Below, piece by piece: positions 2,667 to 58,269 of a stretch of DNA of 64,000 bases (the first letter of the stretch is position 1; each line of letters begins with the position of its first letter). Source of the stretch: Bacilli bacterium (GTDB lineage Bacteria; Bacillota_I; Bacilli_A; RF39; UBA660); the NCBI GenBank assembly GCA_017406955.1, contig JAFQXM010000007.1, forward strand, positions 144,729 to 208,728. Reading direction: 5' to 3'. Below the pieces are notes generated by a model that saw nothing but the letters and a program-made list of their open reading frames with translations, did not search any database and was not told the origin of the DNA. The position numbers and the translations under genes were made by a program.

Positions 2667-4169
2667 ATGGATAATATTATAGATATCGCATCACAAATAG
2701 GTATTAATAAAAAAAATTTAGTTTTATATGGAGATGATAAAGCCAAAATATTATCTAGAGGAAATAATAAAGATAGTAAACTTATTTTAGTAACTGCGAC
2801 AACTCCTACACCGTCTGGAGAAGGGAAAACAACTATTAGTATAGGTTTAGCAGATGCTTTAAGAAAATTAGATAAAAAAGTTATATTAACATTAAGAGAA
2901 CCATCATTAGGCCCAGTATTTGGAATGAAAGGTGGCGCAACTGGTGGAGGATTAGCTAAAGTTATACCAGAAGAAGATATAAACCTACATTTTACTGGGG
3001 ATTTTCATGCGATTACCACTGCGAATAATCTAATATCAGCTGCCATAGATAATCATATTTATAATGGTAATAAACTAAATATAAAAGAGGTATTATTTAA
3101 AAGATGTTTAGATATTAATGATAGAAGTCTAAGGGATAAAGGATTTAATATAACAGCCGCTAGCGAAATAATGAGTATTATATGCTTAGCGAATGATATA
3201 GATGATTTAAGAGATAGATTATCTAATATAATAATAGGTACAAATGATAATAATGAGTATATATACTTAAAAGAATTAAATATAGTTGGAACATTATTAG
3301 TAATATTAAAAGACGCAATAAAACCAAACTTAGTTCAAACATTAGAAGAAACTCCTACCATTATACATGGAGGACCATTTGCTAATATAGCTCATGGTTG
3401 TAATAGTGTCATTGCTACTAAAACAGCTCTAAGTTATGCAGACTATGTAGTAACAGAAGCAGGATTTGCCGCAGATTTAGGTGCAGAAAAATTCTTTGAT
3501 ATAAAATGCAGACAAAGTAATATAAAACCAGACTGCATAGTAATAACCACAACAATAAAATCATTAAAGCATAATAGAAAAGAGAATTTAAAAATACATT
3601 ATGAAAATATGAAAAAGTTTAATACTAATGTAGTAGTATGTTTAAATAAATTTGATAATGATAAAAAAGAAGAAATAGAAGAATTAAAAGATTACTGTAA
3701 TAAAGAAAATATTCCACTCACTATATGTGAATCATTTCAAAAAGGTAGTAAAGGAAGTATAGATTTAGCTAAATTAGTTTTAAAAGAATTAGAAAAAGAT
3801 AATAAATTTAAATTATTATATGATAACAGTCTAAGTATAAACGAAAAAATAGATATTATATCTAAAGAAATATATAGAGCTAATAATGTAATATATAGCG
3901 AAGAATCATTAAGAAAAATAGACACAATAAATAAAAATAACTTATCTTATCTTCCAATTTGTGTATCTAAAACACAATATTCATTATCTGATGATAAAAA
4001 TAATACAAAAAAAGATTATAATATTACAGTAACAGATATAAATATATATAATGGAGCAGGTTTCATCACAGTACTATTAGGAAGTGTTGTTACAATGCCA
4101 GGATTACCAAAAGAACCTAACTATGAAAATATAGATTTAATAGATAATAAAATAATAGGATTAAAATAA
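2667..4169 (+). CDS. fhs: Formate--tetrahydrofolate ligase
   Basis: TPTPSGEGKTTISIGLADAL P-loop and overall FTHFS collinearity; SD aggtga precedes the ATG. Confidence 0.93.
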   Translation: MDNIIDIASQIGINKKNLVLYGDDKAKILSRGNNKDSKLILVTATTPTPSGEGKTTISIGLADALRKLDKKVILTLREPSLGPVFGMKGGATGGGLAKVIPEEDINLHFTGDFHAITTANNLISAAIDNHIYNGNKLNIKEVLFKRCLDINDRSLRDKGFNITAASEIMSIICLANDIDDLRDRLSNIIIGTNDNNEYIYLKELNIVGTLLVILKDAIKPNLVQTLEETPTIIHGGPFANIAHGCNSVIATKTALSYADYVVTEAGFAADLGAEKFFDIKCRQSNIKPDCIVITTTIKSLKHNRKENLKIHYENMKKFNTNVVVCLNKFDNDKKEEIEELKDYCNKENIPLTICESFQKGSKGSIDLAKLVLKELEKDNKFKLLYDNSLSINEKIDIISKEIYRANNVIYSEESLRKIDTINKNNLSYLPICVSKTQYSLSDDKNNTKKDYNITVTDINIYNGAGFITVLLGSVVTMPGLPKEPNYENIDLIDNKIIGLK

Positions 4170-4944: not shown

Positions 4945-5889
4945 TTATTTCTGTATAGAAGACTTAATTCCTTGATAAGTATCTCTTTTAACCATTTCTT
5001 TATCTATATCATTTAAAACACAAAATTTCTTAATTAACCAAGTTGGTTCAATTAAATCTTTAGGATCAGGATCTCCAGTTATTCTATGAATTACTATTTC
5101 TTCTCTTAATAATTCTAGTTGACTAACTACTATATCTATATATTCTTCTTTAGAAAGTACTTTAAATTTCTTTTCTTTATATAACTTTTCTAAAGGAGTA
5201 TCTTTTAAAATACTTAACATATGTATCTTTATACCCCCAATATCTAATTTATTTAAATATCTAACTGTATTTAACATATCTTCTTTAGCCTCATAAGGTA
5301 ATCCATTTATAATATGAACAACTACATCTATATTTCTATTACGTAATTTTTCTACCATATCTTTAAAACAATCTAGAGAATGACATCTATTTATTAACTT
5401 GGATGTTTTGTCATTAATAGTTTGTAATCCTAATTCAATAGTTAAATAAGTCTTTTTATTTAATTCTTCTAAATAATCTAAACACTCATCAGTAATAGAA
5501 TCAGGTCTAGTCGCAATATTTAGTCCAACGACATTATCTTCTTCTAATATAGATTCATATAATTCTTTTAGTTTATCTACAGGCGCATAAGTATTAGTAC
5601 GAGCTTGAAAATAACCAATATATTTAGCTTTAGGCCATTTCTTATGCATCATATTTTTAATATCATTAAATTGTTTCTTAATAGAATCTTTTATATTACC
5701 TGCGAATTCTCCACTACCACTCTTAGAACAGTATATACAGCCACCATATCCAACGGTACCATCTATATTAGGACAAGAAAATCCTGCATTTAAACTGACT
5801 TTAAATACTTTAGAATTAAACTTATTCTTATAAAAATAATCTAAAGTATGATATCTTTTATTACTATTACTATACTTAAATTTATTCAT
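4945..5889 (-). CDS. Radical SAM protein, TIGR01212 (YhcC-like) family
   Basis: CPNIDGTVGYGGCIYCS cluster motif and full-length collinearity with the TIGR01212 family. Confidence 0.8.
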   Translation of the reverse strand: MNKFKYSNSNKRYHTLDYFYKNKFNSKVFKVSLNAGFSCPNIDGTVGYGGCIYCSKSGSGEFAGNIKDSIKKQFNDIKNMMHKKWPKAKYIGYFQARTNTYAPVDKLKELYESILEEDNVVGLNIATRPDSITDECLDYLEELNKKTYLTIELGLQTINDKTSKLINRCHSLDCFKDMVEKLRNRNIDVVVHIINGLPYEAKEDMLNTVRYLNKLDIGGIKIHMLSILKDTPLEKLYKEKKFKVLSKEEYIDIVVSQLELLREEIVIHRITGDPDPKDLIEPTWLIKKFCVLNDIDKEMVKRDTYQGIKSSIQK

Positions 5890-6059: not shown

Positions 6060-7139
6060 ATGGAACCATATAAAGCTAAACTATTACCTATTTCTTATGA
6101 GTTAGATAAAGAAACAATTAAATTATTAGGACAAGCAAATGATAAATATGGTCAATATAAATCATTATTAAAAGTATTTAAATTTGATCAAAAATTTTTC
6201 TTAGATTCTTTAGTACTAGGAGAAAGTATAAGATCATCAAGAATTGAAGGAACACAAATATCCCAAGATGATATGTATTATATGGATTACAAAGAAACAA
6301 ATGATAGTATTAAAGAAGTTAAAAATTTAAAGAAAATGTTGGAGTATGCAAATACTAAATTAAAAGATAAAGACTTTAGTATTGATATGATTAATAAAAT
6401 GCATAAAATTTTATTATCTGGAACTAGAGGTGAAGATAAATCACCTGGTAAAATACGTACAATACAAAACTATATTGGACTAAGAGGTTTAGGTAAAGAA
6501 GGCGCAACATTTGTTCCTCCTATTCCAGAAGAAGTTCCAGAATTATTAGATAATCTTATAGAATATATGAATAATATGTATAATGATGAAGCCTTTATAA
6601 AAGTGGCAATATCTCATGTACAATTTGAATCTATTCACCCATATAATGATGGTAATGGTAGAATGGGAAGAGCTCTAATGACTTTAGAATTAGCTAAATT
6701 AAAAGGTGATGAACCAATATTATTTTTATCAGAAGTAATAGAATTATTTAAAGCTAATTATTACAATACTTTAACTGAGTGTAGACATGGTAATGTAGAT
6801 GGCTTTATTAGATTTTTCTTACAATGTGTAGTAGACCAATGCACTAGAAATATTGGTAGAATAGAAAAGATAAATAGAGTTTATGAAGAAGATGAACAAA
6901 CTATAAAGGAAAATATGAGTGGTAGTATAGTAGTTAGAATGCATCCATTAATGATGAAAAAAATAGTATTTACTGCTCAAGATATGGCAGATGAATTAGA
7001 TGTTCATATTAATTCTATAAATAAAGTATTAAATCGTTTAATAGAATTAAATATAATAAAAAAAGAAAAGAAAGAAGGTACAAATAGGATAACATATAGA
7101 TATATTAGAGTCTATGATACCTTTGTAGAACAAATATAA
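6060..7139 (+). CDS. fic: Fic family protein (class II, N-terminal inhibitory motif) with C-terminal winged HTH
   Basis: HPYNDGNGRMGRAL matches the Fic motif HPFx(D/E)GNGR. SSRIEG matches the (S/T)xxxE(G/N) inhibitory helix. Confidence 0.85.
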   Translation: MEPYKAKLLPISYELDKETIKLLGQANDKYGQYKSLLKVFKFDQKFFLDSLVLGESIRSSRIEGTQISQDDMYYMDYKETNDSIKEVKNLKKMLEYANTKLKDKDFSIDMINKMHKILLSGTRGEDKSPGKIRTIQNYIGLRGLGKEGATFVPPIPEEVPELLDNLIEYMNNMYNDEAFIKVAISHVQFESIHPYNDGNGRMGRALMTLELAKLKGDEPILFLSEVIELFKANYYNTLTECRHGNVDGFIRFFLQCVVDQCTRNIGRIEKINRVYEEDEQTIKENMSGSIVVRMHPLMMKKIVFTAQDMADELDVHINSINKVLNRLIELNIIKKEKKEGTNRITYRYIRVYDTFVEQI

Positions 7140-7140
7140 A

Positions 7141-7172
7141 AAGCTAGTTTTTCATTTACTAGCTTTTTTATT
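7141..7172 (+). terminator. Rho-independent terminator after fic
   Basis: aagctagt...actagctt followed by tttta. Confidence 0.55.
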
Positions 7173-7203
7173 TAAATATGCTATAATTATATTAGGTGAT
7201 AAT

Positions 7204-8328
7204 ATGGCAGTAAGAAGAAAGTTTAAATTAAAACCTAACGCAATAATTCTACTAAAAAGAGTAGGTATAGTATTAGGTATATTACTAGCTATTTTTCTAT
7301 TTTATAGACACAATATTAATGAATTAAAGAAATTAGGTTATAGTGAAAAAGCCAGTAATACTATACTTTTTAAATTTAAGAAAAGTTATGTTATGGATAT
7401 AGGTAAAAATAAAACATTAAATGCTGCTTTTGAGAGTAAAGATTATAAAGAAAAGAACATAGATAATTATAGTAAAATTAAATATCAAAATCATAAACAT
7501 TTAATTAAACATATTAATTTATTATTAAAAAAAGGCTATCACAATAAAGATATATCTTTAATACTTGCACATGGTACTGATAATGATGTAGAAGAATTTA
7601 TAAAACATAAAAAAATCAGGTACATTGAAGAATTCTTTACTATAGATTGTGCTAAAATAAATAATTATGATAGATATATAGCTTATTCTGATGAAACAGG
7701 AGAAGATGAAGAAACAGTTGTTGTGTCAGTTAATCTAGATATGGATAAAGAACCATATAAAGAACCTCTTAAAATAAGAAAATATAATAAATATGTATTA
7801 GTAACTAAACATAGACAACTTATGAAAAGTTATAAACCAAAACTAGTTAATATTGATAAAAAATATGCATTAGATAGTAAACAGAAATCAGTAAAAGAAG
7901 CAAAAGATGCTTTTATTAAGATGTATAAGGCTGCAAAGAAAAAGGGTTATGAAATATATATTAATTCTAGTTATCGTAGTTATGAAGAACAAGAAAAAAT
8001 TTGTAATACATATTCTTCGCTATATGGACAGTCTTATATAGAAAAATATGTCGCAAAACCAGGATATTCAGAACATCAAACAGGTTTAGTATTTGATATA
8101 GCTAGTAAAAAGAATAAAATATTCGCAGAATCTAAAGAATATAAGTGGATGCAAGAAAATGCTTATAAATATGGATTTATTCAAAGATATCCTAAAGGGT
8201 ATGAAGAAATAACAGGATTTAGGGCAGAACAATGGCATTATAGGTATGTAGGTAAGAAAATAGCTAAGTATATTTATGATCATAAAATTACCTATGATGA
8301 GTATTATATTAGATTTTTAGATAAATAA
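7204..8328 (+). CDS. Membrane-anchored D-alanyl-D-alanine carboxypeptidase, VanY/M15 family
   Basis: N-terminal TM segment. SYRSYEEQ, GYSEHQTGLVFDI (SxHxxGxAxD) and EQWHYRYVG zinc-peptidase motifs. Confidence 0.75.
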   Translation: MAVRRKFKLKPNAIILLKRVGIVLGILLAIFLFYRHNINELKKLGYSEKASNTILFKFKKSYVMDIGKNKTLNAAFESKDYKEKNIDNYSKIKYQNHKHLIKHINLLLKKGYHNKDISLILAHGTDNDVEEFIKHKKIRYIEEFFTIDCAKINNYDRYIAYSDETGEDEETVVVSVNLDMDKEPYKEPLKIRKYNKYVLVTKHRQLMKSYKPKLVNIDKKYALDSKQKSVKEAKDAFIKMYKAAKKKGYEIYINSSYRSYEEQEKICNTYSSLYGQSYIEKYVAKPGYSEHQTGLVFDIASKKNKIFAESKEYKWMQENAYKYGFIQRYPKGYEEITGFRAEQWHYRYVGKKIAKYIYDHKITYDEYYIRFLDK

Positions 8329-8329
8329 A

Positions 8330-8353
8330 TGGTAGTTTTTCTACCATTTTTTA
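8330..8353 (+). terminator. Rho-independent terminator
   Basis: ggtag/tttttc/taccat followed by tttttt. Confidence 0.55.
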
Positions 8354-8398
8354 CTTTATTATGTTATTATGATATTAGGAAAATAAGAAGGTGTTGGT

Positions 8399-10819
8399 AT
8401 GTATCCACTTGGAAAACAATTTGAAGTAGATTATACTAGGGCTAGAAGTGATGATAAATCTATAGTACAAGGAAGTAACTTTAGGATAAGTATCATTACT
8501 GAGCGAATTGTAAGATTAGAATTTTCACCTAGTGGACAATTTATAGATAGACCTACACAGTTAGTTTCTAGAAGAGATCTAGGACTTGCTAATTTTAGAG
8601 TGACTCAAGATACAACTTATATAAATGTTTCAACCAAATATTTTGAATTAAAATACATTAAAAGAGCACCTTTTACTGGTACTAAAGTAGATCCTGCTAA
8701 GAATTTAAAAATAACACTTAATAGTAGAGAAAGAGATAGAAATAAAGATTGGTATTATGGACATCCAGAAGCAAGAAATATGTTAGGTAATATGATTAGT
8801 GTAGATATAAATGCTACTAAAGAATTATCTAGAGGATTATATTCACTAGATGGATTTGCTTCTATTGATGATTCTAAAAATAAAATAATAATGGAAGATG
8901 GTACATTAGCTAATCCACCAGAAGATCATATAGATATTTATGTATTTATGTATGATAAAGACTTTAAACAAGCTTTATTTGATTATTTTAAAATGACAGG
9001 TTCACCAGTATTAGTACCTAGATATGCATTAGGTAATTGGTGGAGTAGAAATATAACTTATACTGATGAAGATGTTAAAGAATTAGTAAAAAAAGCTGAA
9101 AAGAAAAAAATACCACTATCAGTAATATTATTTGATCATGATTGGCATTATAGAAATGTAGGAGATAAAAAAGATTTAAAGACAGGTTATACATTTAATA
9201 AAGAATTATTTAAAGATCCAAAATCTATGATAGAAAAACTACATAAAAGAGGTATAAGAGTAGGAGTAAATATAGATCCAGAAGGAGGATTTTATCCTCA
9301 TGAAGAAAACTATCAATATGTTAAACAATTTTTAGGATTAAATGACAATAAAATAGTATTATTTGATCCTCTAAATCCTAAACTATTAGATATTTTATTT
9401 AAAGTATTCCTACATCCATTAGAAGCATTAGGAGTAGACTTCTTCTGGAATGATTATAAAGGAGAAAAAGATATTCATAAACTATGGATTACTAATCATT
9501 ATATGTTCTTAGACTCAAAAAGAAATTTAAATAAAAGAGGACTAGTACTTGGACGTAATGGTATAGTTGCTCCTCATAGATATCCAATACTATATGGAGG
9601 AAGTAGTGAAATAAGTTGGGAAGAATTAAAAAAATTACCATTTAGGTATTTAAATGCTTCTAATATAGGAGTTAGTTTCTGGAGTCATGATGTAGGTGGA
9701 AATCATGGCGGTATAGAAGAAGGAGAACTATATATAAGATACTTAGAATTAAGTGTATTCTCTCCAATATTAAGATTCCATGGAGCTAGAAGTAAATATT
9801 ATAAAAAAGAACCTTGGTTATGGGATGTAACTACTACTGCGATTGCTGTTGATTACTTAAGACTTAGACATAGATTAATACCATATATTTATACAGAAGC
9901 ATATAATTATACAAAATCAGGAACTCCATTAATACAACCATTTTATTATAACTATATGTGGGTATATGATGATGAATTATATAAGAATCAATACTATTTT
10001 GGATCACAATTACTAGTATGTCCAATACTTACTAAAAAAGATCCAACCATGAATAGAACAGTACATAGATTCTTTATACCAGATGGTATTTGGTATGACT
10101 TTGTAACTGGTAAGAAATTCCCAGGAAATAAAAAATATATATCATTCTTTAAAGAAGAAGATTATCCAGTATTTGCCCATGCAGGTAGTATAATACCACT
10201 ATCTAATAGAAGTGATTATAATAATACAGGACTTCCTACAGACTTAGAAATACAAATATTCCCAGGAGTATCTAATACGTATACACTATATGAAGATGAT
10301 GGAATTACTTCTTTATATAAAGATGGATATTATTTAAAAACTTCAATTGATTATAACTACTTAAAAAATAACTACACAGTAATAATAAGAAGTATAGATG
10401 GTAAAAGTGGAATAGTACCAGAAAAAAGAAACTATAAAATGGTATTTAGAAACACAAAAGAAACTAATGATGTAGTAGCTTATTTCAATAATGAAAAAGT
10501 AAAAACAACATCATATGTAGATGGAAATGACTTTATAGTAGAAGTAAAAGACTGTCCTACTATAGGACAACTAACTATTAACTGTAAGGGTAAAGACATA
10601 GAAATAGATGCAGTTAGATTAATAAATGATGATGTTGGGAGTATATTAATGGATCTAAAAATAGAAACATATCTAAAAGAAGAAATAGATTCTATTATGT
10701 TTGGAGATCTACCCAATAATAAAAAAAGAATAGCTATTAGAAAACTAAAGAAAAAGAAATTATCAAAAGAATATATTAATCTATTCTTAAGATTATTAGA
10801 ATATATTAATGAATTTTAA
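8399..10819 (+). CDS. Glycoside hydrolase family 31 (alpha-glucosidase/alpha-xylosidase-like), cytoplasmic
   Basis: WWSRN, DHDWHY, GVDFFWNDY and FWSHDVGG motifs; no signal peptide. Confidence 0.85.
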   Translation: MYPLGKQFEVDYTRARSDDKSIVQGSNFRISIITERIVRLEFSPSGQFIDRPTQLVSRRDLGLANFRVTQDTTYINVSTKYFELKYIKRAPFTGTKVDPAKNLKITLNSRERDRNKDWYYGHPEARNMLGNMISVDINATKELSRGLYSLDGFASIDDSKNKIIMEDGTLANPPEDHIDIYVFMYDKDFKQALFDYFKMTGSPVLVPRYALGNWWSRNITYTDEDVKELVKKAEKKKIPLSVILFDHDWHYRNVGDKKDLKTGYTFNKELFKDPKSMIEKLHKRGIRVGVNIDPEGGFYPHEENYQYVKQFLGLNDNKIVLFDPLNPKLLDILFKVFLHPLEALGVDFFWNDYKGEKDIHKLWITNHYMFLDSKRNLNKRGLVLGRNGIVAPHRYPILYGGSSEISWEELKKLPFRYLNASNIGVSFWSHDVGGNHGGIEEGELYIRYLELSVFSPILRFHGARSKYYKKEPWLWDVTTTAIAVDYLRLRHRLIPYIYTEAYNYTKSGTPLIQPFYYNYMWVYDDELYKNQYYFGSQLLVCPILTKKDPTMNRTVHRFFIPDGIWYDFVTGKKFPGNKKYISFFKEEDYPVFAHAGSIIPLSNRSDYNNTGLPTDLEIQIFPGVSNTYTLYEDDGITSLYKDGYYLKTSIDYNYLKNNYTVIIRSIDGKSGIVPEKRNYKMVFRNTKETNDVVAYFNNEKVKTTSYVDGNDFIVEVKDCPTIGQLTINCKGKDIEIDAVRLINDDVGSILMDLKIETYLKEEIDSIMFGDLPNNKKRIAIRKLKKKKLSKEYINLFLRLLEYINEF

Positions 10820-10846
10820 AACTTAGTTAAAAACTAAGTTTTTTAA
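10820..10846 (+). terminator. Rho-independent terminator insulating GH31 from the downstream operon
   Basis: aacttagtt/aaa/aactaagtt followed by tttttt. Confidence 0.55.
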
Positions 10847-10856
10847 TGTCTAAAAA

Positions 10857-10886
10857 TTGACAATAATACCTGGGGGGGGGTATACT
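10857..10886 (+). promoter_or_regulatory. Sigma-A-type promoter with a G9 homopolymer in the -35/-10 spacer
   Basis: TTGACA (10857-10862), 18-nt spacer ataatacct plus nine G, then TATACT (10881-10886). SD AGGAG and ATG 10917 lie about 30 nt downstream. Confidence 0.6.
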
Positions 10887-10916
10887 ATATATAGTGTAAT
10901 AGTAGGAGTTATAGGT

Positions 10917-13900
10917 ATGAAAAAAGATGTAAAAGAAGTATTTAAGAAAGTAGTAAAAAAGACAAAAGAAATATTAAAAATGGATGTAAAAGATATAGTA
11001 AAAAAAAGAAAAGTACAAATATCTTTTTTAGTGATAGTAGGAATAAGTATAATAGCACTAGTATATAGTGCATTCTTTGCGCCAACAGCACTAAACAAAC
11101 TAGTAGCATCAAAACTATACAAATCTCCAGCAAATTCAGCTTTTAAAGACCAAAACTTCTATAACTGTGTAGTAGATGAATATAATACAGATAAAAGCGC
11201 CTCAGGCAAAGTAGCATATACGTATGAACTAAGTGATGAACAGTTAAGAACTGTAAATATGTTAAGCTGTAATGGTTCTGAAAAATCAGAAGATCAGAAA
11301 ATAAGTGATACAAGTGGTGTAGAAAAACTGACTAATTTAAAAAATTTGGAATTAATCTCTAATAATATAAGAAACATAGATTTAACAAACAATAGCAAAT
11401 TAGAAGACTTGTTTATCAGTTTCAACAAATTAGAGTACATAGATTTGTCATCAAACAGTAGTTTAGATTCAGTTTTTTTAGGAGGTAATAAACTGACTAA
11501 TCTTAGTTTGCCAGAGAATTTACGCTATTTATCTTTAGATACAACAGATTATGTTGACTTTTTTCCAAGTGTTAATAATGGTGGTATCAATAAAACTATA
11601 AGCAGAAACAGTCGTGAATTAACAAATAATATTGAATCACTTGATTTATCATCAATACATTCTCTGAGAGTATTGAGCGCTAAAAATATAGGTTTAAAAG
11701 AAATAAAACTAAATAATGAAATAAGTAACATTGAAATGCCAGATAACAATTTAGATAACAAGAATCTTAACTTATCAAATTTTCCTAATTTATGGCGTCT
11801 TAATGTATCAGGGACAGGAATTGAAAGTCTAAATGTATCAAATAGCAACAATTTAAAAGATTTGCAAGCCGTTAATAACAATATATCAAGCCTTAATGTA
11901 TCAGGCTGTAGTGCACTTAAAGAAGTATGGTTAGCTGATAATAATTTAAAAAGTATAAATTTAAATGATAATATTAATCTTGAAGAATTAAATTTATATG
12001 CAAATCCTTTAAAGCAACTAAATCTTTCAAATAATGTAAATTTAAAATCATTAGTAATAGGAACAGTTTTACCTTCAGATAATACACGTAAAACAGAAAT
12101 TACAGATTTAGATTTATCGCTACAAGAAAAATTAGAGTTAATTCATCTATACCCCTCAAATTTAGAACACATAAGTTTGAATGCTAACAATAATATTCAA
12201 ACATTTATGAGTAAAGAAAACCCACTTACCAGAAATGAGTTTATGGTCTTGTTTAATGAAAATTTAACAAATTTAGATATAAGATATCCTGGTTTTGAGT
12301 CAATTGATTTGTCAAACGTAATAAATTTAGAAGAATTAATAATAACAGGAGACAACAATTTAAAAAGTATAAATTTAAGAAATAATGTAGCTCTAAAAAA
12401 TTTGCAACTAGTATCTAATGGTCTAAACGATATAGATATAAGCCAAAATGTAAATCTCGAACGATTGTATTTAGGGAGTAATAAATTACATAATTTAGAT
12501 TTAAGTAGAAACACTAACTTAAAACATTTAGGTTTAGGAGATAATGACTTAAGTAGTATAGATGTAAGTCGAAACATAAACTTAGCAGGATTAAATTTAT
12601 ATAATAATAAACTAAGTAGTATTGATCTAACAAATAACACTGTATTAGAAGAAATTAACTTATCTGGTAATCCATTAAACAAAACTCAATCGTTGTTGCT
12701 GGGTAAAAAAACTATAATTGACTCACCAGTTAAGTTGCCAGAGACAAGTAATTTACCCACTAGTTGGTATAACACAACATATGAAGCAGAAGAAGGGTCA
12801 GGCGCAATCATAGAAGACAATAATGTTACTGCTAAAAAGTTAAAAGATTTTACTGTAAGAGAAGTTAATTCTAGGTATGCTGCTACTATTAATATGGAAG
12901 TGATAGCTTATTCATCAGACAAATATGATCTTAAAAAAGATTATATAGACATAGGTACAACTGAATTCAACATAGAAGATATAGAAGTTTCAGAATCATG
13001 TACAAAAGAAATTGTAACTGATGAAAATGGAAACAGAAGATTAGTAATTAAGTATGAGAATGAAGAAATAGGTTCATGGGATATAGTTAGTTATAAATCA
13101 ACTAAGTATAATTTGAATCAACCATATATACTTGTAGGATTAAATGATCTTAATTTGGATGATATAGAAGTATCTAATTGTACAAAAGAAATAGCTGGTA
13201 ATAAATTATTAATTAAATATGGAGATGAGATAAAGGATTATATAATCTTAAGTTATAAATCAGATAAATATGATTTAAGTAAAAATTATATTTATTTAGG
13301 AAATAATGACCTTAGTTTAGATAGTATAGAGACTTCTGGATTTGATAAACAAATAGAAGATAATAAGTTGGTATTAAAATATTATTTTGCAACAAAAGAA
13401 TATGATTTATTAACTTTAAGTTCTGATAAATACTTTATAAGTAAAACTGGAATATATTATGGAGAAGAACCTGTTAGTGTAGAAGAGTTTAAAAATAATA
13501 TAGAAACAGATTTAGAGATAAAAGTATTTAGAAATGATGTAGAGTTAACTACAGGAAATATTAGTTATGGAGATGTAGTAAAAGTATATAGTAATACATA
13601 TGGAGAAGTACATAGTTATACATTAGTAGAGGAATATTTAGATGTAAGTAAACTGGATATAGATAATAATGTAATAGAGAAAGTTAAAGTAGGAGATAGT
13701 TTTAAAGACATAAAAGACAAAATAGATACAACTGGTACTATAAAACTAATAGATAAAGATAATAACGAAGTAGAAGATACAACAGGAAGAAGTTTAAGAA
13801 CAGGAGATACAATAAGAATAGAATTAAGTAATGAAGTAGAAGAGTATCAAATAAGTATTAGTGGAGATGTAAATGGATCTGGTAAAATAGATGTTGGAGA

Positions 13901-14054
13901 TTTATCAAAAGTATTAACAGATGTAATGGATGTAGAGAAGATAGAAGGAGAATGTTATCAAAAAGCAGCAGACTACAATGAAGATGGAAGACTAGGTGTA
14001 GGAGATTTATCAAAACTATTAACAAAACTAATGGGAGGTGAGAGTAATGAATAA
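10917..14054 (+). CDS. Leucine-rich-repeat surface protein with C-terminal dockerin module
   Basis: Lys-rich N-terminus plus hydrophobic signal/anchor. About 20 tandem 22-aa LRRs (LxxLxxLxLxxNxLxxIDLSxN), four ~55-aa repeats, and a dockerin-type duplicated Ca-binding segment. The first loop (GDVNGSGKIDVGDLSKV) and the second (DYNEDGRLGVGDLSKL) are about 20 aa apart. SD aggag 8 nt upstream. Confidence 0.8.
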   Translation: MKKDVKEVFKKVVKKTKEILKMDVKDIVKKRKVQISFLVIVGISIIALVYSAFFAPTALNKLVASKLYKSPANSAFKDQNFYNCVVDEYNTDKSASGKVAYTYELSDEQLRTVNMLSCNGSEKSEDQKISDTSGVEKLTNLKNLELISNNIRNIDLTNNSKLEDLFISFNKLEYIDLSSNSSLDSVFLGGNKLTNLSLPENLRYLSLDTTDYVDFFPSVNNGGINKTISRNSRELTNNIESLDLSSIHSLRVLSAKNIGLKEIKLNNEISNIEMPDNNLDNKNLNLSNFPNLWRLNVSGTGIESLNVSNSNNLKDLQAVNNNISSLNVSGCSALKEVWLADNNLKSINLNDNINLEELNLYANPLKQLNLSNNVNLKSLVIGTVLPSDNTRKTEITDLDLSLQEKLELIHLYPSNLEHISLNANNNIQTFMSKENPLTRNEFMVLFNENLTNLDIRYPGFESIDLSNVINLEELIITGDNNLKSINLRNNVALKNLQLVSNGLNDIDISQNVNLERLYLGSNKLHNLDLSRNTNLKHLGLGDNDLSSIDVSRNINLAGLNLYNNKLSSIDLTNNTVLEEINLSGNPLNKTQSLLLGKKTIIDSPVKLPETSNLPTSWYNTTYEAEEGSGAIIEDNNVTAKKLKDFTVREVNSRYAATINMEVIAYSSDKYDLKKDYIDIGTTEFNIEDIEVSESCTKEIVTDENGNRRLVIKYENEEIGSWDIVSYKSTKYNLNQPYILVGLNDLNLDDIEVSNCTKEIAGNKLLIKYGDEIKDYIILSYKSDKYDLSKNYIYLGNNDLSLDSIETSGFDKQIEDNKLVLKYYFATKEYDLLTLSSDKYFISKTGIYYGEEPVSVEEFKNNIETDLEIKVFRNDVELTTGNISYGDVVKVYSNTYGEVHSYTLVEEYLDVSKLDIDNNVIEKVKVGDSFKDIKDKIDTTGTIKLIDKDNNEVEDTTGRSLRTGDTIRIELSNEVEEYQISISGDVNGSGKIDVGDLSKVLTDVMDVEKIEGECYQKAADYNEDGRLGVGDLSKLLTKLMGGESNE
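12900..13600 (+). repeat. Four tandem ~165-nt coding repeats (protein-level ~55-aa module: SYKSDKYDL..NYIYLG.NDL.LD.IE.S.C.KEI) inside the LRR-dockerin gene
   Basis: Repeated peptide blocks VIAYSSDKYDLKKDYIDIG / VSYKSTKYNLNQPYILVG / LSYKSDKYDLSKNYIYLG / LTLSSDKYFISKTGIYYG. Confidence 0.6.
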
Positions 14055-15768
14055 GATAAACAAAGTAGTATTAACCATTACTCTAACCTTAATCTTAGTT
14101 TTAACAATAACTATAGTAATACTAAATAGAGGTATTAGTTATGCCGCAGGAGAAAAGAGTGGAAGTATAAGCATAAATTGTCCAAGTACATTATCATCTG
14201 GATCTACTATGACATGTACATTAAACGGATCAATTACAGGTACAAATTATAAGGGAGTAGAAGCAGATGTAAGTATAAGTAGTAATTTAGAATTAGTGGA
14301 ATTTACTAATTCAATAGATGGAGCTTATGGAGGCTTAAATACTACAAGATTAACAACTGCTATATCTACAGAAAAATCTGGCTCATTTGAAATAGGAAAA
14401 ATAAAACTTAAAGGAAAGTCAGGAGTAAGTGGAGTAACAGAACAAATAAGTTTAAGTAATGTAGAGTTTTCAGATTCAGAAAATCAACAAATGCCAATAA
14501 GTAGTGCAAGTAGAACAGTAAGAATACCATCAACTAATAATAACTTATCAAGCTTAAGTGTAAGTGGAGCAAGTATATCATTTAATCCAAATACCACAAC
14601 ATATAATGTAACAGTAAATGCATCTAATACAACAATAAGTGCATCTTTAGCAGATAATAATTCAACATTAAGTGGAACAGGAACAAAGAGTCTAAACTAT
14701 GGAAAGAATACATATAAAGTAAATGTAAAAAGTGAAGCAGGAGTAACAAAAACATATACAATAAATATCACAAGACCAGATAATAGAAGTACTAATAACT
14801 ATTTATCAAGTCTAAGTTTAAGTAGTGGAAAAATATCATTCAAAAAAGGTACTACAAACTATAATGTAAGTATAGGAAGTTCAGTAAGTAGTGTTAAAAT
14901 AAGTGCATCAATAGAAGATAAAAAATCAAGTTATGTATCGGGATATAATCCAAGAACAGTAAAATTAAATAGTGGAACAACAAAAGCACAAATAAAAGTA
15001 ATGGCAGAAAATGGAAGTGTAAGAACATATACAATAAACATTACAAAAGCAGGAACAAAAGCAAGTAGTAATACAAAGAGTGGTACAAGTAAAAATAATA
15101 CAACAAAGAGTAATACACCTACAAAGAGTTCAGATAATAAACTAAAGACTTTGTATTTAAGTAATGGATATATAAACTTCAAGAGTGACAAAACAGAATA
15201 TAAAGTAGATGTATCTAATAAAGTAAAAGAATTAGATATAAAAGGAGATTTATCAAGCGATAAAGCAAAAGTAGAAGGTTTAGGAAAACAAGAATTAAAG
15301 GTAGGAGAAAATGTATTCAAGATAAAGGTAACTGCCGAAAATGGAGATGAAAAAACATATACATTAAGAATAAATAGAAAAGATAAAGAAAGTAGTAGTA
15401 ACTTAGATAGTAATAACTACTTAAAGAGTTTAAAAATAGAAGGATATAAAATAGAGTTTAGTAAAACAAAATATAAATATGAAGTAGACTTAAAAGGAAA
15501 TAAAAGATTAGAAATAGATGCCCAAGCATCATCAAAAGATGCAGATGTAACAATAATGGGAAATGAAAATCTAAAGAATAAAGATAAGATCAAAATAGTC
15601 GTAACAGCAGAGGATGGAACAAATAGAGTATATACAATAGAAGTAAAAGAAAATCATAATATAATGTATACAGCAATAGGAATATTTATAATAGGATTCT
15701 TATCATTATTAGTAGCCTTTGCCTATAAAAAGAAAAAAGATTCTAATGTAGAGTATGTATATGAATAA
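14047..15768 (+). CDS. Membrane-anchored cohesin-domain protein with four cadherin-like beta-sandwich repeats and C-terminal TM anchor
   Basis: Signal peptide ending ISYA/AGE. A ~130-aa cohesin-like module (GVEADVSISSNLELVEFTN ... SFEIGKIKLKGKSGVSGVTEQISLSNVEF). Four ~85-aa repeats of the NNYLSSLS..TYTINITR type with a Ser/Thr/Lys linker. C-terminal IMYTAIGIFIIGFLSLLVAFAYKKKKD. GGGAGG SD; the start overlaps the upstream gene by 8 nt. Confidence 0.75.
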   Translation: MNKINKVVLTITLTLILVLTITIVILNRGISYAAGEKSGSISINCPSTLSSGSTMTCTLNGSITGTNYKGVEADVSISSNLELVEFTNSIDGAYGGLNTTRLTTAISTEKSGSFEIGKIKLKGKSGVSGVTEQISLSNVEFSDSENQQMPISSASRTVRIPSTNNNLSSLSVSGASISFNPNTTTYNVTVNASNTTISASLADNNSTLSGTGTKSLNYGKNTYKVNVKSEAGVTKTYTINITRPDNRSTNNYLSSLSLSSGKISFKKGTTNYNVSIGSSVSSVKISASIEDKKSSYVSGYNPRTVKLNSGTTKAQIKVMAENGSVRTYTINITKAGTKASSNTKSGTSKNNTTKSNTPTKSSDNKLKTLYLSNGYINFKSDKTEYKVDVSNKVKELDIKGDLSSDKAKVEGLGKQELKVGENVFKIKVTAENGDEKTYTLRINRKDKESSSNLDSNNYLKSLKIEGYKIEFSKTKYKYEVDLKGNKRLEIDAQASSKDADVTIMGNENLKNKDKIKIVVTAEDGTNRVYTIEVKENHNIMYTAIGIFIIGFLSLLVAFAYKKKKDSNVEYVYE

Positions 15769-15771
15769 AAA

Positions 15772-15808
15772 AAGAAAGCATTTTTAATTAATTGCTTTCT
15801 TTTATTTT
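15772..15808 (+). terminator. Rho-independent terminator after the cohesin gene
   Basis: gaaagca...tgctttc hairpin followed by ttttatttt. Confidence 0.5.
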
Positions 15809-15810
15809 GA

Positions 15811-15870
15811 AAAAATTTCCAAAACTTGTCGATTTTTAGTAGTTTTGGAAAAACATTTCCAAAACTTGAC
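15811..15870 (+). promoter_or_regulatory. Array of three copies of TTTCCAAAAC (direct, inverted, direct) upstream of the ATPase gene
   Basis: atttccaaaacttg at 15815-15828, inverted gttttggaaa at 15842-15851, and atttccaaaacttg at 15855-15868. The copies can form mutually exclusive hairpins. Confidence 0.35.
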
Positions 15871-15913
15871 TTTATATAAAAATTAATATATACTTAACAC
15901 AGAGGTGAAAACT

Positions 15914-17122
15914 ATGATAGAAAGAACAGAATATCTTGAGCAATTAAAAAGATTTAAAGATAAAGATTTAATCAAAGTTGTTACTGGTATAAGAAGATGC
16001 GGGAAATCTACGTTATTTGAATTATTTATAAATTATTTAAAAGACAATAATATAAAAGATGATCAAATAATAAAGATAAATCTAGAAGATGTTGAATATA
16101 ATTTTAAAGATTATAAAGAACTATATGACTACGTAAATGTAAAGATAAATTCTAAGAAACAATATTACGTTTTCTTAGATGAAGTTCAAAATGTTCCTAA
16201 ATTTCAAAAGGCAGTAGATAGTTTATATATCAAGAAAAATGTTGATGTATATATAACTGGTTCAAATGCCTATTTATTATCTGGCGAACTTGCAACATTG
16301 CTATCTGGGAGATATATAGAAATAAAAATGTTACCGCTATCATTTAAAGAATATTTAAGTGCTTTTAATACCAACTCAGGTAAAAGTTGGTATGAGTATT
16401 TCCTAGATTATATGAGAAATGGCGGTATGCCAGGAAACATATCTATTTTAGAAGATAATCCTAATGATTTAGATATGTATTTAGAAGGAATATTCACGAC
16501 AATAGTATATAAAGATATTATCACAAGAAACAACATATCAGATAGGACGGTATTAGAGAATATATTAAAATTTATCTTTGATAGTATAGGTAGTCCAATA
16601 TCAACAAAAAAAATAAGTGATACATTAACTAGTAAAGGAATACAAACAAGCAATCATACTGTTGAAAACTATATATCTGCCTTTGTTGAAAGCTTTCTAA
16701 TATATAAAGCTGAAAGATTTGATGTTAAAGGAAAAAATTTGTTAGCCAGAGATTATAAATATTATGTTGTAGACTCAGGGTTAAGAAGTTATTTATTAGG
16801 TAAAAAAGCAGATAGTGACATGGGGCATATATTAGAAAATATAGTTTATCTTGAATTATTACGAAGAGGATATAAAGTTTATGTTGGTAAAGTAGATGAT
16901 TTAGAAGTTGATTTTGTCGCAAAAAATCGAGATGGCTTAAAATATTTTCAAGTTGCTTTATCCGTTAGAGATGAAACGGTATTAAATAGAGAACTTAGGT
17001 CATTACAAAAAACTGGAGATCATTATCCAAAATATTTATTGACATTGGATATGGATTTAGAAACAGATTATGATGGAATAACAAAAATAAATGTAGTTGA
17101 TTGGCTATTAAGTGATGAATAA
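15914..17122 (+). CDS. AAA-family ATPase with C-terminal DUF4143 domain
   Basis: GIRRCGKST Walker A, hhhhDE Walker B (YVFLDEVQ), DUF4143-like C-terminal half. SD agaggtga precedes ATG 15914. Confidence 0.75.
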   Translation: MIERTEYLEQLKRFKDKDLIKVVTGIRRCGKSTLFELFINYLKDNNIKDDQIIKINLEDVEYNFKDYKELYDYVNVKINSKKQYYVFLDEVQNVPKFQKAVDSLYIKKNVDVYITGSNAYLLSGELATLLSGRYIEIKMLPLSFKEYLSAFNTNSGKSWYEYFLDYMRNGGMPGNISILEDNPNDLDMYLEGIFTTIVYKDIITRNNISDRTVLENILKFIFDSIGSPISTKKISDTLTSKGIQTSNHTVENYISAFVESFLIYKAERFDVKGKNLLARDYKYYVVDSGLRSYLLGKKADSDMGHILENIVYLELLRRGYKVYVGKVDDLEVDFVAKNRDGLKYFQVALSVRDETVLNRELRSLQKTGDHYPKYLLTLDMDLETDYDGITKINVVDWLLSDE

Positions 17123-17207
17123 AAATAGTTGAATTGATTATATTTATATGATAAAGTGAATATAGAAGAGAAATCTTCATAAAATAAAAGTGGAATAGCC
17201 CCATGGG

Positions 17208-17342
17208 TTAGGTTCCAAATAAATGGTTTGTCCTAATCATTCTTAGAAGGATGATTAGGGTCTTTTTTATCTCAAAAATTATTACTAACTTTATTTGAAA
17301 ATTAAGACAAATTGAAATTATAAACAAAATCAACTCATTCAT
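17208..17342 (-). CDS. Candidate 44-aa hydrophobic small protein (MNELILFIISICLNFQIKLVIIFEIKKTLIILLRMIRTNHLFGT), very tentative
   Basis: GGAGGTGAT SD 7 nt upstream of the ATG. Below the 60-aa cutoff of the ORF track. Reads through the terminator hairpin. Confidence 0.25.
   Translation of the reverse strand: MNELILFIISICLNFQIKLVIIFEIKKTLIILLRMIRTNHLFGT
17230..17268. terminator. Strong rho-independent terminator (bidirectional potential)
   Basis: cctaatcattctt/ag/aaggatgattagg followed by tcttttttat. Confidence 0.65.
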
Positions 17343-17446
17343 AGTATCACCTCCAGAGTATCCCCCTGAAAATAATAATTTGAAACCTAACCATAGGTAT
17401 TCCTATTATATTATTAGAAAAAAATAATACTTTTCCCTAAAATAAC

Positions 17447-17475
17447 TTGAAAAAAGTATTAAAATTTAATATACT
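17447..17475 (+). promoter_or_regulatory. Candidate promoter of the leuS T-box leader
   Basis: TTGAAA, 17-nt spacer, TATACT. Confidence 0.35.
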
Positions 17476-17481
17476 ATGAAT

Positions 17482-17696
17482 AGATTTTTTAAATATTACT
17501 AGTAGTAGTAATAACTAATTTTATTTAAAGAGAGTTTACGGGTGGTGTAAGTAAATATAAAATGGTTATGAACTTGACTAGTTATAAGTATTTATGGGTA
17601 AGACCTATATCTCTATTAAGATGCATAGTATATACTATGAATTAAGGTGGTACCGCGAATATTTCGTCCTTATTTATATAAGGACTTTTTTTTGGA
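17482..17696 (+). promoter_or_regulatory. T-box riboswitch leader, Leu-specific
   Basis: Canonical T-box sequence aattaaggtggtaccgcgaa (17640-17660). Specifier context gaaCTTgac (CUU at 17573-17575). Terminator gtcctta/tttata/taaggac followed by T8. Confidence 0.8.
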
Positions 17697-17705
17697 GGAA
17701 ATTAT

Positions 17706-18053
17706 ATGAGACAAGTAATTTTATTTATACTTAGTTTTATAGTAACTTTAATAATTTATGAATTATTTGTAGTTAATAAAGCTAAGAAAAATAAGGAAAA
17801 TAGACCTATAGAGGTAAAATATTTAGTGAATAAATATAAGGTTGATTTAAAGAAAGCTAATTATAATCAGATGTTACAAATAATAGCTTTAATATCTTCT
17901 TTAGATATTGCGTTAATAGCGTTTATTGTTAGTTTTTTTAAAGGAATAAACATACAAATATTAGTTGGAGTTATTATTGTATTTCCAACTATAATAATTA
18001 GTTATATGTTTGTTGGTAATTTTTATAAAAAGAAAGGAATGATTAGAAAGTGA
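17706..18053 (+). CDS. Small three-TM membrane protein, first cistron of the T-box-controlled leuS operon
   Basis: GGAGG SD 7 nt upstream. The stop TGA overlaps the leuS GTG start (GTGA). It fills an otherwise 360-nt gap between the T-box terminator and leuS. Confidence 0.5.
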
Positions 18054-20446
18054 ATAATTTTAAAGAAATAGAAAAAAAATGGAGAAAGAAATGGGAAGAT
18101 GAAGAAGTATTTAAAACTGATTTAAGAGATTTTTCTAAACCTAAGTTTTATGCTTTAGATATGTTTCCATATCCAAGTGGTGTAGGATTACATGCTGGTC
18201 ATCCAGAAGGATATACTGCGACTGATATAGTTAGTCGTATGAAGAAAATGCAAGGATATAATGTACTTCACCCAATGGGATTTGATTCATTTGGACTTCC
18301 TGCAGAACAATATGCAATTAATACAGGTAATCATCCAGCTAAGTTTACTCATGAAAATATTAATACTTTTAGGGAACAATTAAAAAGATTAGGATTTTCT
18401 TATGATTGGAGCTTAGAAGTATCTACAAGTGAGCCCTCTTATTATAAATGGACTCAATGGATATTTAAAAAATTATATGAGGATGGTTTAGCTAAAGAAG
18501 TAGAAATGCCAGTTAATTGGTGTGAAGAATTAGGGACTGTTCTTGCTAATGATGAAGTAATAGATGGTAAAAGTGAACGTGGTGGATATCCTGTTATTCG
18601 TAAAATGATGAAGCAATGGGTTATAGATATACCTAAATATGCAGAAAGGTTACTTGAGGGATTAAATGAGATTGATTGGCCTGAAGGAACAAAAGAAATA
18701 CAAAGAAACTGGATTGGTAAATCAATTGGAGCCCATGTTGATTTTAAAGTAGATGGTTATGATGATAAATTCACAGTATTTACGACACGTTGTGATACAT
18801 TATTTGGCGCAACATATTGTGTATTATCACCAGAACATGAATTAGTTGATAAAATTACTACCTTTGATAAAAAAGAAGAAGTAGAAAGATATAAACAAGA
18901 AGCTGCCTCTAAGAGTGATTTAGAGCGTACAGAGCTTAATAAAGATAAAACAGGTGTATTTACTGGAGCTTATGCAATAAATCCTGTAAATGATACTAAA
19001 ATACCTATTTGGATAAGTGATTATGTACTTGCTAGTTATGGTACAGGTGCCATTATGGCAGTTCCTGCGCATGATGATAGAGACTATGAATTTGCGAAAA
19101 AATTTGATATAGATATTATTCAAGTATTAGAAGGTGGAGATATCTCTAAAGAAGCATGGACAGAAGATGGTATTCATATTAATTCAGGATTTTTAGATGG
19201 ATTAAATAAAGAAGATGCCATTGATAAGATGATAGAATTCTTAGAAGAGAACAAATGTGGAGAAAAACATATTAATTATCGAATAAGAGATTGGATTTTT
19301 GCACGTCAAAGATATTGGGGAGAACCAATTCCTATAGTACATTTTGAAGATGGAACTACTAAGGCTTTAAAAGATGAAGATTTACCATTAGTACTTCCAG
19401 AATTAGATGATTATGCACCTAGTAAAGATGGTAGTAGTCCATTAAATAAGGCAACTGACTGGATTAATGTAGAACTTGATGGTAAAAAAGGTAAATTAGA
19501 AACATCTACTATGCCAGGTTCTGCTGGATCAAGTTGGTATTTCTTGAGATATATAGATCCACATAATGATGAAGAATTCGCAAACTATGACTTATTAAAA
19601 CACTGGTTACCAGTTGATTTATATGTAGGTGGTCCAGAACATGCAGTAGGACATTTATTATATTCAAGAATGTGGAATAACTTCTTATATGATAAAGGTT
19701 TAGTACCTGTAAAAGAACCATTTAAAAAATTAGTTCATCAAGGTATGATATTAGGAGAAAATGGTATAAAGATGGGTAAAAGATATCCAGAATACTCAAT
19801 TAATCCTAATGATATAATTGATGAATATGGTGCAGATACTTTAAGATTCTATGAAATGTTTATGGGTCCATTAGAAGCAGATAAACCATGGAATAGTAAA
19901 GGTGTTGAAGGTAGTAAGAAATTTTTAGATCGTGTATATAGATTATATATAGAAGAAAATAAAATAAAAGATGAAGAAAATAAAGCTCTTGAAAAGATAT
20001 ATCATCAAACAGTTAAGAAAGTAACAGAAGATTTTGAAACATTAAACTTTAATACCGCTATATCTCAAATGATGATATTTATAAATGCAGTATATAAAGA
20101 AAATGTTTATCCTAAGGAATATGCAGAAAACTTCATTAAGTTATTAAACCCAATCGCACCATTTATAACAGAAGAAATATGGGAACAATTAGGTCATAGT
20201 AAAACAATTGCGAATGAATCTTGGCCTACATATGATGATTCTAAAATAGTAGAAGAAGAAAAAGAAATAGCTGTACAAGTAAATGGTAAAGTACGTGCTA
20301 CTATAAAAATAGGTATTAATGAAGAAGAAGATTCTATTAAAGAAAAAGCTTTAAGTGAAGAAAATGTTAAAAATCATACTAATGGTAAAGAAATAATTAA
20401 AGTAATTGTTATTAAAGGTCGTATAGTTAATATAGTAGTTAAATAG
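18050..20446 (+). CDS. leuS: Leucine--tRNA ligase
   Basis: Conserved N-terminus [17 protein letters not shown] (HIGH motif), KMGKR-like (KMSKS motif); 798 aa; GTG start. Confidence 0.95.
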
Positions 20447-24742: not shown

Positions 24743-24766
24743 TTTAATTACTTTTTCTTTTTTATA
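24729..24766. terminator. Bidirectional terminator palindrome shared by the 3' coding ends of two convergent genes
   Basis: aaagaaaagtaatt/t/aattactttttcttt spans the stop codons of the flippase gene (24742) and the fem gene (24748). Confidence 0.5.
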
Positions 24767-27301: not shown

Positions 27302-27319
27302 AACTTCACCTCTAAATAA

Positions 27320-28618: not shown

Positions 28619-28684
28619 ATAAATCATCCTCATTATTAGTATACCACAATCTATTTACTTCAACAAAAAAAGAACATAAAGTTC

Positions 28685-39487: not shown

Positions 39488-39555
39488 TTTAAATTAATTG
39501 ACTTTTATTTCTAGGTTTGTTAATATACATTTAGTTTTGGAAAAGAGGTATGTAT

Positions 39556-47614: not shown

Positions 47615-47686
47615 ATACATTCTCCTTTATTCATAATAAATTTATGTTAATTACAATTTATATATTCCAATAAAAAAATAAAATGT

Positions 47687-57930: not shown

Positions 57931-58269
57931 ATGTATCAAAATAAGATTGCACTTATGCCACAAGATATTTTAGAGAAAGAATTTAAAATAGATACCAGAG
58001 GGTATAGATTAAAAGAAGTTGATCAGTTTTTAGATATTATTATTAATGATTATGAACAATTTTTAAATATTATTAATAATCTAGAAAAAGAAAAAGCTGA
58101 TTTACTTGGAGAAATTATGAGTTTAAAACAAGAACTTAGAAACTCTAAAATGAACATAGAAGTTGCGAAAGAGAATAATGATGTTCCAGAGGTTACTAAT
58201 GTTGATATTTTAAGACGTCTTTCTCAACTTGAAAAGATGGTTTATGGAGCGATAAATAAAGACAATTAA
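57931..58269 (+). CDS. gpsB: Cell-cycle protein GpsB (DivIVA-domain)
   Basis: LMPQDILEKEFKIDTRGYRLKEVDQFLDIIINDYE matches the GpsB N-terminal domain. Confidence 0.85.
   Translation: MYQNKIALMPQDILEKEFKIDTRGYRLKEVDQFLDIIINDYEQFLNIINNLEKEKADLLGEIMSLKQELRNSKMNIEVAKENNDVPEVTNVDILRRLSQLEKMVYGAINKDN

Follow-up and report, generated by a model that had tools for sequence, protein, structure and literature searches.

A G8/G9 homopolymer in the core promoter of a predicted surface operon of uncultured, spore-forming gut Bacilli, a probable slipped-strand expression switch

A run of nine G residues lies between the -35 and -10 hexamers of a candidate promoter, ahead of a two-gene operon for predicted surface proteins in an uncultured lineage of the Bacilli, and in another assembly of the same clone the run has eight. 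This run is probably a hypermutable simple-sequence repeat in the core promoter of the operon, with slippage setting its expression. We infer that the promoter is active here, that tract length governs how strongly it is transcribed, and that it switches often and reversibly. Very probably this is a slippage-driven expression switch of a known kind, operating in a group without a prior description of one; the kind of mechanism is familiar, and what is new is the unstudied lineage and the unusual cargo. Throughout, the window means the whole 64-kb stretch of DNA that was analysed, which has a GC content of 25.5%. The region around the tract is laid out as follows.

8399-10819, + strand: GH31 gene, the upstream neighbour, ending at the terminator hairpin
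10818-10845, + strand: intrinsic-terminator-like hairpin and U run that end the GH31 gene (RNA fold; stem 10818-10842)
10857-10862, + strand: -35 hexamer TTGACA (read directly)
10863-10880, + strand: spacer, ATAATACCT followed by nine G, 18 nt in total (read directly)
10872-10880, + strand: G9 homopolymer, the variable element, in the 3' half of the spacer and abutting the -10 (read directly)
10881-10886, + strand: -10 hexamer TATACT (read directly), aligning with the syntenic -10 of the relative L004, TGG-TATATT
10904-10908, + strand: Shine-Dalgarno sequence AGGAG, 8 nt before ATG 10917 (read directly)
10917, + strand: ATG start codon of gene 1 (read directly)

Direct reading bears out the coordinates given for the hexamers, spacer, Shine-Dalgarno sequence and start codon in a preliminary description of this DNA. 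The terminator hairpin that it placed upstream folds at -10 kcal/mol with z = -3.6, none of 200 shuffled sequences folding equally well, and its U run extends to 10845; lying where it does, this terminator isolates the promoter as the operon's own. The whole candidate promoter, TTGACA-9 nt-G9-TATACT, sits downstream of the terminator and 30 nt ahead of the Shine-Dalgarno/ATG. The same description had called the G9 run improbable and without equal in the window, and the counts agree. The window holds four C5, two G5, one G6 and one G9 among G/C runs of at least 5 nt, which makes G9 the longest and the sole one above 6, with the next-longest, the G6 at 52249, falling within the gene for the CCA-adding enzyme. 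Under a first-order Markov model of the window, runs of such length are expected 0.0017 times per window, and one of 300 simulated windows contained one.

The hexamer pair is the best promoter match in 9500-12500, agreeing with the sigma-70 consensus at 11 of 12 positions. In AT-rich DNA, matches of this quality arise at chance level, both in the scan of 9500-12500 and across the window, where 7 matches of at least 11/12 were observed vs 10.9 expected from Markov simulations, and so the promoter assignment draws on position, orthology and recurrence rather than on consensus alone. On this point the reasoning of the preliminary description needs to be corrected. Five of the seven best matches in the window have a gene start 54-157 nt downstream in the correct orientation, four of them starting TTGACAA, and these gene-upstream matches have a 17-nt spacer in every case but the G9 promoter. 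It is placement, not similarity to the consensus, that is informative about such matches in the window. An Rfam search gave no match at the G9 promoter locus.

The operon that this promoter would drive consists of two overlapping genes and a closing terminator.

10917-14054, + strand: gene 1, 1045 aa, with an N-terminal signal anchor, leucine-rich repeats and a C-terminal type I dockerin (Pfam LRR_4, Dockerin_1)
14047-15768, + strand: gene 2, 573 aa, with a signal peptide, a cohesin-fold domain at aa 28-170, four cadherin-like beta-sandwich domains and a C-terminal membrane anchor (four Pfam Cadherin-like matches; AF2)
15770-15808, + strand: terminator-like hairpin and U run closing the two-gene operon (RNA fold, -12.3 kcal/mol, z -3.2)

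The N-terminus of gene 1 is lysine-rich and continues into one hydrophobic helix. Its dockerin (PF00404, Dockerin_1) scores 25.0 bits vs a cut-off of 22.9 when the C-terminal 119 aa are scanned alone, and it is of type I, with duplicated calcium-binding segments in which the motifs DVNGSGKIDVGDLSKV and DYNEDGRLGVGDLSKL are found; homologues of gene 1 also carry PF00404. The two genes overlap by 8 nt. No cohesin HMM matched the N-terminal domain of gene 2 (aa 28-170), and the N-terminus returned nothing from a sequence search of the PDB or from a word-based homologue search. A single-sequence AF2 model of the same residues (pLDDT 75) matches PDB structures at TM 0.6-0.70, with E = 2e-6, and the top 3 and 15 of the top 25 matches are cohesin modules, led by those of C. 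perfringens (2vo8 and 2jh2), R. flavefaciens ScaB and C. acetobutylicum CohA2, with 5n5p also among them. The model thus points to a cohesin fold, and a cohesin identity, taken from the fold, is a reasonable reading of it. The label first given to the locus, an LRR-dockerin/cohesin operon, is reasonable in the same sense: its dockerin stands above the Pfam cut-off with the C-terminus scanned by itself, and its cohesin part comes from the predicted fold only. The claim that this is a surface locus agrees with the sequence of both products, which have predicted signal or anchor segments alongside the LRR and dockerin of the first and the cohesin fold and cadherin-like domains of the second.

Comparison of tract length between assemblies, which the preliminary description had suggested as a check, gave a positive result. 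Five assemblies of the locus, all one clone, were compared: the window, L001/L234 (ENA ERZ28019072), L002 (Logan SRR12529046), L003 (Logan SRR12529053) and L235 (ENA ERZ28654782, sample SAMN15829916). A homologue search with the LRR protein gave nothing above 35% identity, which makes strain comparison by way of that protein impossible, and L235 was located only through the conserved GH31 gene upstream. The tract is G9 in L001/L234, L002 and L003, which match the window at every position over 7-15 kb. Over 5,421 nt, the alignment of L235 to window positions 6899-12320 is free of mismatches, and its one gap falls in the tract, leaving G8 and a 17-nt spacer at the level of assembly consensus. 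Ten A/T runs of 7-8 nt are unchanged between L235 and the window, and contig L223, from the same ENA assembly, is identical to an NCBI MAG over 7,323 nt except for an artefact at the contig end; both controls argue against an assembler artefact as the source of the G8 allele. We therefore report a G8/G9 polymorphism at this locus, consisting of a one-G difference in a single variant assembly and read from consensus sequences. Pattern scans with exact flanks and any tract length found no match to the window locus among GTDB species representatives or JGI metagenomes; the species is rare and is not among the representative genomes.

These alleles fit a simple scheme in which slipped-strand mispairing at replication would add or remove G residues, and each change in their number would alter the distance and the rotational phase between TTGACA and TATACT. 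G8 would give the canonical 17 nt and presumably full expression, and the G9 state of the window, at 18 nt, would presumably lower expression without abolishing it. With G10 or more, or with G7 or fewer, the operon would be largely silenced. A clonal population would then contain cells that display differing amounts of the adhesin-like complex. The equation of G8 with 17-nt spacing, already made in the preliminary description, is matched by L235, and 17 nt is also the spacing of the other strong promoters in the window and of the orthologous promoters in relatives. The effect of going from G8 to G9 may be modest rather than ON/OFF, an 18-nt spacer usually being still functional, and spacers among the metagenome matches listed below have their mode at 18-19 nt, contrary to a simple model with a 17-nt optimum, which also leaves the almost constant contact between run and -10 without explanation. 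A G run in contact with the -10 also always supplies G at -13 and -14, the latter being the key base of an extended -10 element. It is conceivable that this supply of an extended -10 G might buffer expression, so that the tract would act as a rheostat rather than as a strict ON/OFF switch.

Two other forms of switch were considered and rejected. An inverton would need inverted repeats bracketing 10857-10886, and there are none; the GH31 terminator hairpin aside (I6, 88%), the inverted-repeat search returned only short AT-rich matches that are 71-93% complementary. An intragenic frameshift switch does not fit the position of the run, which ends 36 nt before ATG 10917, and no Shine-Dalgarno sequence precedes the in-frame TTG at 10857.

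The GH31 gene retrieved 79 species representatives at 65-86% identity, and the LRR/cohesin operon follows it only in the nearest relatives; in most others examined GH31 runs directly into another gene or into the T-box leader of leuS. An equivalent of the GH31 terminator hairpin is also present in L004/L007, L008 and L010. At the position of the G9 promoter, L004/L007 have TTGTTT-17-TATATT with TGG ahead of the -10, and L008/L010 have TTGAAT-17-TATTAT with TGA ahead of the -10, neither with a G run. No G tract was found in the homologous LRR operons of L004/L007, L005, L006, L008 and L010, which rules out the tract as a conserved feature of this LRR gene family. When the window is aligned to L004, its -10 falls over that of L004 and the G9 takes the place of the GG in the extended -10. 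That the syntenic promoters have TGG or TGA and no tract suggests that the run grew from the GG of an extended -10 element, and the G tract would therefore be a lineage-specific expansion within a promoter otherwise spaced at 17 nt.

Over window positions 7204-20446, identities to L004 are 86% for GH31, 67% for VanY, 56% for a small membrane protein, 54% for the cohesin/cadherin protein, 50% for leuS and 35% for the LRR-dockerin protein. The GH31 gene is the outlier, through unusual conservation or recent exchange, and of the six syntenic genes that for the LRR protein has diverged most. To call the LRR protein hypervariable would go too far, since its 35% identity stands beside just 50% for leuS, with GH31 the outlier at 86%. 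Between the operon and the leuS leader lies an AAA_14/DUF4143 ATPase gene with its own promoter (window 15905-17122), which is absent from this position in L004 and located elsewhere in L006, and looks like a mobile or variable insertion. Logan contigs L002 and L003 both stop at 17186, just past the ATPase gene, where no repeat is obvious.

Related loci amounting to about 1.03 Mb contain a single further G or C run of at least 7 nt, in L024 from the rabbit-gut MAG GCA_947600015.1, where the order is a terminator, TTGACA-AAATTGTA-G12-TATAAT, GGAGG and the ATG of a 439-aa signal-anchored protein. This protein belongs to a large uncharacterised family (2,690 matches) and has a weak match to DUF6273. 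The rabbit MAG has five paralogous genes for signal-anchored proteins of ~440 aa, each behind a cassette of the form terminator-TTGACA-AAAT[T/C]GTA-Gn-TATAAT-GGAGG, with the following G runs.

L024 3333-3344: G12
L087 2446-2456: G11
L088 1-7: at least 7 G, the contig starting inside the run
L099 about 2946-2957: G12
L100 about 2945-2956: G12

With one homopolymer per gene, the rabbit MAG family is formally a vlp-like multigene arrangement, by analogy of layout. Surface proteins of this family (~440-600 aa), which have G-tract promoters in relatives, are absent from the window, and no tract is present in those ruminant relatives that carry P0184.

A human-gut relative (26% GC) carries the same family in another design, in which a promoter and Shine-Dalgarno sequence precede a short leader ORF, ATGGTTAACAAAATGTTAAAATG-Gn, then a terminator-like hairpin and the main gene. 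The design is conserved in two diverged variants. The leader-ORF G runs lie at these positions.

L089-L098: first cassette 2403-2411; second cassette 5607-5616
L224-L233: first cassette 3897-3905; second cassette 7100-7108

In the first cassette the tract is G9 in 12 assemblies, G10 in 4 and G7 in 2, and within each locus set these variants of 7, 9 and 10 precede an identical downstream protein; the second cassette has G9 or G10. Only G8 and G11, neither of them observed, would open a leader of 42-43 codons across the hairpin, ending in ATGA on the main start codon. From its sequence, the leader-ORF tract may be a switch by frame-dependent attenuation or translational coupling.

The same promoter design recurs in metagenomes. 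We scanned with the pattern TTGACAA-N6-9-G8-N0-5-TATAMT, in which the hexamers are forced and the gap between G run and -10 may be 0-5 nt. At least 120 loci (L101-L220), at 24-65% GC and from many unrelated projects, many of them human gut, match it, with G runs among the matches listed of the form TTGACAA-N-G8-13-TATA(A/C)T. Despite the allowed gap of 0-5, the run abuts the -10 in 106 of the 123 matches listed (86%), and the spacers of the matches listed are 15-22 nt long, most often 18-19 rather than 17. Downstream genes among the matches listed, in gut Firmicutes, encode lipoproteins, prepilins (KGFTLIELL), wall-anchored proteins and Tat-signal proteins. By a crude heuristic, and again among the matches listed, N-termini resembling signal peptides, lipoprotein signals or prepilin leaders are enriched, with 67 of 101 downstream genes having one vs 139 of 545 for the remaining ORFs of these loci (p = 7e-15). 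One downstream gene, named Eubacterium sp. or Lachnospiraceae in NCBI, is on at least 1,000 contigs. One target of the scan is a methyltransferase of an abundant Eubacterium/Lachnospiraceae species.

Among the matches listed there are also allele series, from G8 to G13, whose flanks are 97-100% identical and which differ in the number of G alone. L152, L110 and L155 have G8, G9 and G10, with 600 of 600 downstream positions identical between the G8 and G10 members; L146 and L151 have G10 and G12, L124 and L187 have G9 and G10, and one lipoprotein locus runs from G10 to G13. This suggests that G-tract promoters are common ahead of genes for surface proteins in gut Firmicutes and differ from sample to sample. 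A broader proposition, which could equally well prove right or wrong, is that poly-G set against the -10 of sigma-A promoters constitutes a contingency switch that is widespread and has gone unrecognised as a class, serving the secreted and surface proteins of gut Firmicutes, with vlp-like family and leader-ORF forms as well in low-GC spore-forming Bacilli, and with the G8/G9 promoter of the window as one instance. Such a class would span lipoproteins, prepilins, wall-anchored proteins and dockerin/cohesin systems, and in its leader-ORF form the reading frame would decide whether ribosomes pass over the terminator hairpin and couple into the main gene.

Other explanations of the tract have to be weighed against slippage acting through promoter spacing. 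The run could be a fixed, lineage-specific insertion without switching, with the G8 of L235 either an error of sequencing or consensus calling or else an indel that is rare and neutral, and with the operon under ordinary regulation. Such an account would sit comfortably with the agreement on G9 of four out of five assemblies of one clone, with the general functionality of both 17- and 18-nt spacers, and with relatives that do without the tract. We nonetheless find it unlikely, as it would leave a run expected ~0.002 times per window to fall exactly in a core promoter, and the tract to be the only difference in 5.4 kb for an assembly that is error-free over 7.3 kb elsewhere. The identical design is moreover present at other loci with G8-G13 alleles in near-identical flanks, and with G11 and G12 among paralogous cassettes.

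Alternatively, the tract could act by a route other than spacer length, through the G at -14/-13 of an extended -10, regulator binding, DNA melting or the transcribed leader, as has been proposed for T. pallidum tprL or N. meningitidis opc. Poly-G effects independent of spacing have been described (PMC7864442), and several observations point the same way: the run abuts the -10 in 106 of the 123 matches listed, metagenome spacers among those matches peak at 18-19 rather than 17 nt, the tract replaces the TGG/TGA extended -10 of relatives, and one relative has its G tracts in a leader ORF, not in the promoter. Against this stand the location of the run between two near-consensus hexamers downstream of a terminator, the missing ribosome-binding site of the ORF that includes it (TTG 10857), and the fact that any change in length unavoidably changes the spacing, and we judge a route of this kind, taken by itself, to be quite improbable. 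That the poly-G is a two-colour Illumina artefact or a misassembly can be dismissed as hardly credible, for although poly-G artefacts are common in raw reads and are trimmed by pipelines (for example, PMC13484286), this run is internal, has unique flanks on both sides and was recovered by independent assemblies and pipelines (ENA megahit, Logan and the XIEF21 scaffolds of ENA). NCBI also has the LRR protein on record, and many unrelated projects contain the same design.

Slippage acting through promoter spacing has well-studied precedents. Repeat-driven switches are textbook material for Neisseria, Haemophilus, Campylobacter, Helicobacter, Treponema and Mycoplasma, and for the gut microbiota, work on phase variation has dealt chiefly with the invertible promoters of Bacteroidales and with epigenetic switches. 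In Mycoplasma hyorhinis, the vlp genes each have a poly-A tract in the promoter spacer. As there, promoter-spacer homopolymers would independently switch the members of a surface family, and the rabbit-gut relative with its five cassettes is a close formal parallel; unlike vlp, with its poly-A tracts, lipoproteins and wall-less organism, the window has one such promoter and no paralogue family. A 2025 review names the Vlp system and lists Neisseria and Haemophilus for switching driven by repeats; for Helicobacter and Campylobacter it has genomic analyses of phase variation, and it takes its gut examples from the invertible promoters of Bacteroidales (PMC11868660). Among the open-access papers searched, none described repeat-driven switches, those with poly-G in a promoter spacer included, for gut Firmicutes or the present Bacilli, an absence that is no proof of novelty.

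The preliminary description had called the mechanism established, naming Neisseria and Mycoplasma vlp, and this is sound in that porA and T. pallidum tp0126 are of the same kind, each an established poly-G promoter mechanism with a 17-nt optimum (PMC7864442). In Neisseria meningitidis porA the G run likewise lies between -35 and -10 ahead of a surface product, with expression hinging on 17-nt spacing (PMC7864442), but porA encodes an outer-membrane porin in a Gram-negative pathogen, whereas here the run abuts the -10 of a two-gene dockerin/cohesin operon in uncultured spore-forming gut Bacilli. The promoter of tp0126, an OmpW homologue, also has poly-G between -35 and -10, with an optimum of 17 nt and lengths that vary within isolates (PMC7864442); it differs in belonging to a spirochaete whose GC content of 53% makes a G run much less unlikely, and in having been followed by fragment analysis, against assembly consensus here. 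Campylobacter jejuni contingency loci resemble the present case in belonging to an AT-rich genome with G/C homopolymers of 8-11 nt that are strikingly over-represented at genes for surface structures and differ from isolate to isolate (PMC8355987, PMC6321876), but those tracts are mostly intragenic and act by frameshift, and this one is in a promoter.

For the cargo, the likeness is to the glycosidase complexes of Clostridium perfringens and the scaffoldin complexes of Ruminococcus flavefaciens, with which the operon shares a type I dockerin and whose cohesins (2vo8, 2jh2, 5n5p) are closest to the predicted fold of gene 2. Unlike in those complexes there is no enzyme cargo, the dockerin being on an LRR protein, and the cohesin-like domain, which matches no cohesin HMM, is combined with cadherin-like domains and a membrane helix. 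A pairing of the two proteins is a candidate interaction.

If the G8/G9 promoter is a real switch, then an uncultured spore former varies, within clonal populations, the display of an LRR/dockerin-cohesin adhesin, which would bear on colonisation, on escape from immunity or phages, and on how 'strain' variation in metagenomes is read. The interest lies less in the single promoter than in the wider set of G-tract promoters that followed from it. Their recurrence makes the idea testable without culture, through tract lengths per sample at hundreds of promoters in existing read archives. There is also a practical warning, that homopolymer length at such sites should not be 'polished away' in MAGs.

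The organism itself is recorded, for the LRR protein, as 'MAG: Bacilli bacterium' in NCBI. Relatives matched by GH31 are labelled as uncultured Bacilli, Tenericutes, Mollicutes, Erysipelotrichaceae or Candidatus Faecimonas; the guts in which they were found are those of ruminants, rabbits, chickens, mice and humans. One gene in the window bears directly on sporulation.

46139-47620, - strand: spoIVA (TIGR02836, 667 bits vs a curated cut-off of 460)

The window also encodes a class A penicillin-binding protein and FemX-like enzymes, and CotE and YlbD are encoded in relatives. Despite the Tenericutes and Mollicutes labels, the spoIVA score together with the CotE and YlbD of relatives supports the earlier designation of the host as a Gram-positive spore former, with which the class A penicillin-binding protein agrees, and suggests that this 'Mollicutes-like' lineage of uncultured Bacilli forms endospores.

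Several further features of the window were recorded in passing. A second surface adhesin locus (515-2460, - strand) consists of a 478-aa thioester-domain and SpaA-type protein followed by a sortase, and has no homopolymer tract. A T-box leader at 17492-17674 precedes a 115-aa membrane protein and leuS, and a class B RNase P RNA lies at 58268-58609. There are two Fic-domain genes (6060-7139 and 20530-21417) and two acetate-kinase paralogues (39550-40746 and 42181-43362). Three tandem ORFs of 426-437 aa occupy 24748-28633, and the first of them (24748-26043) matches a FemX-like enzyme at a score far below the curated cut-off.
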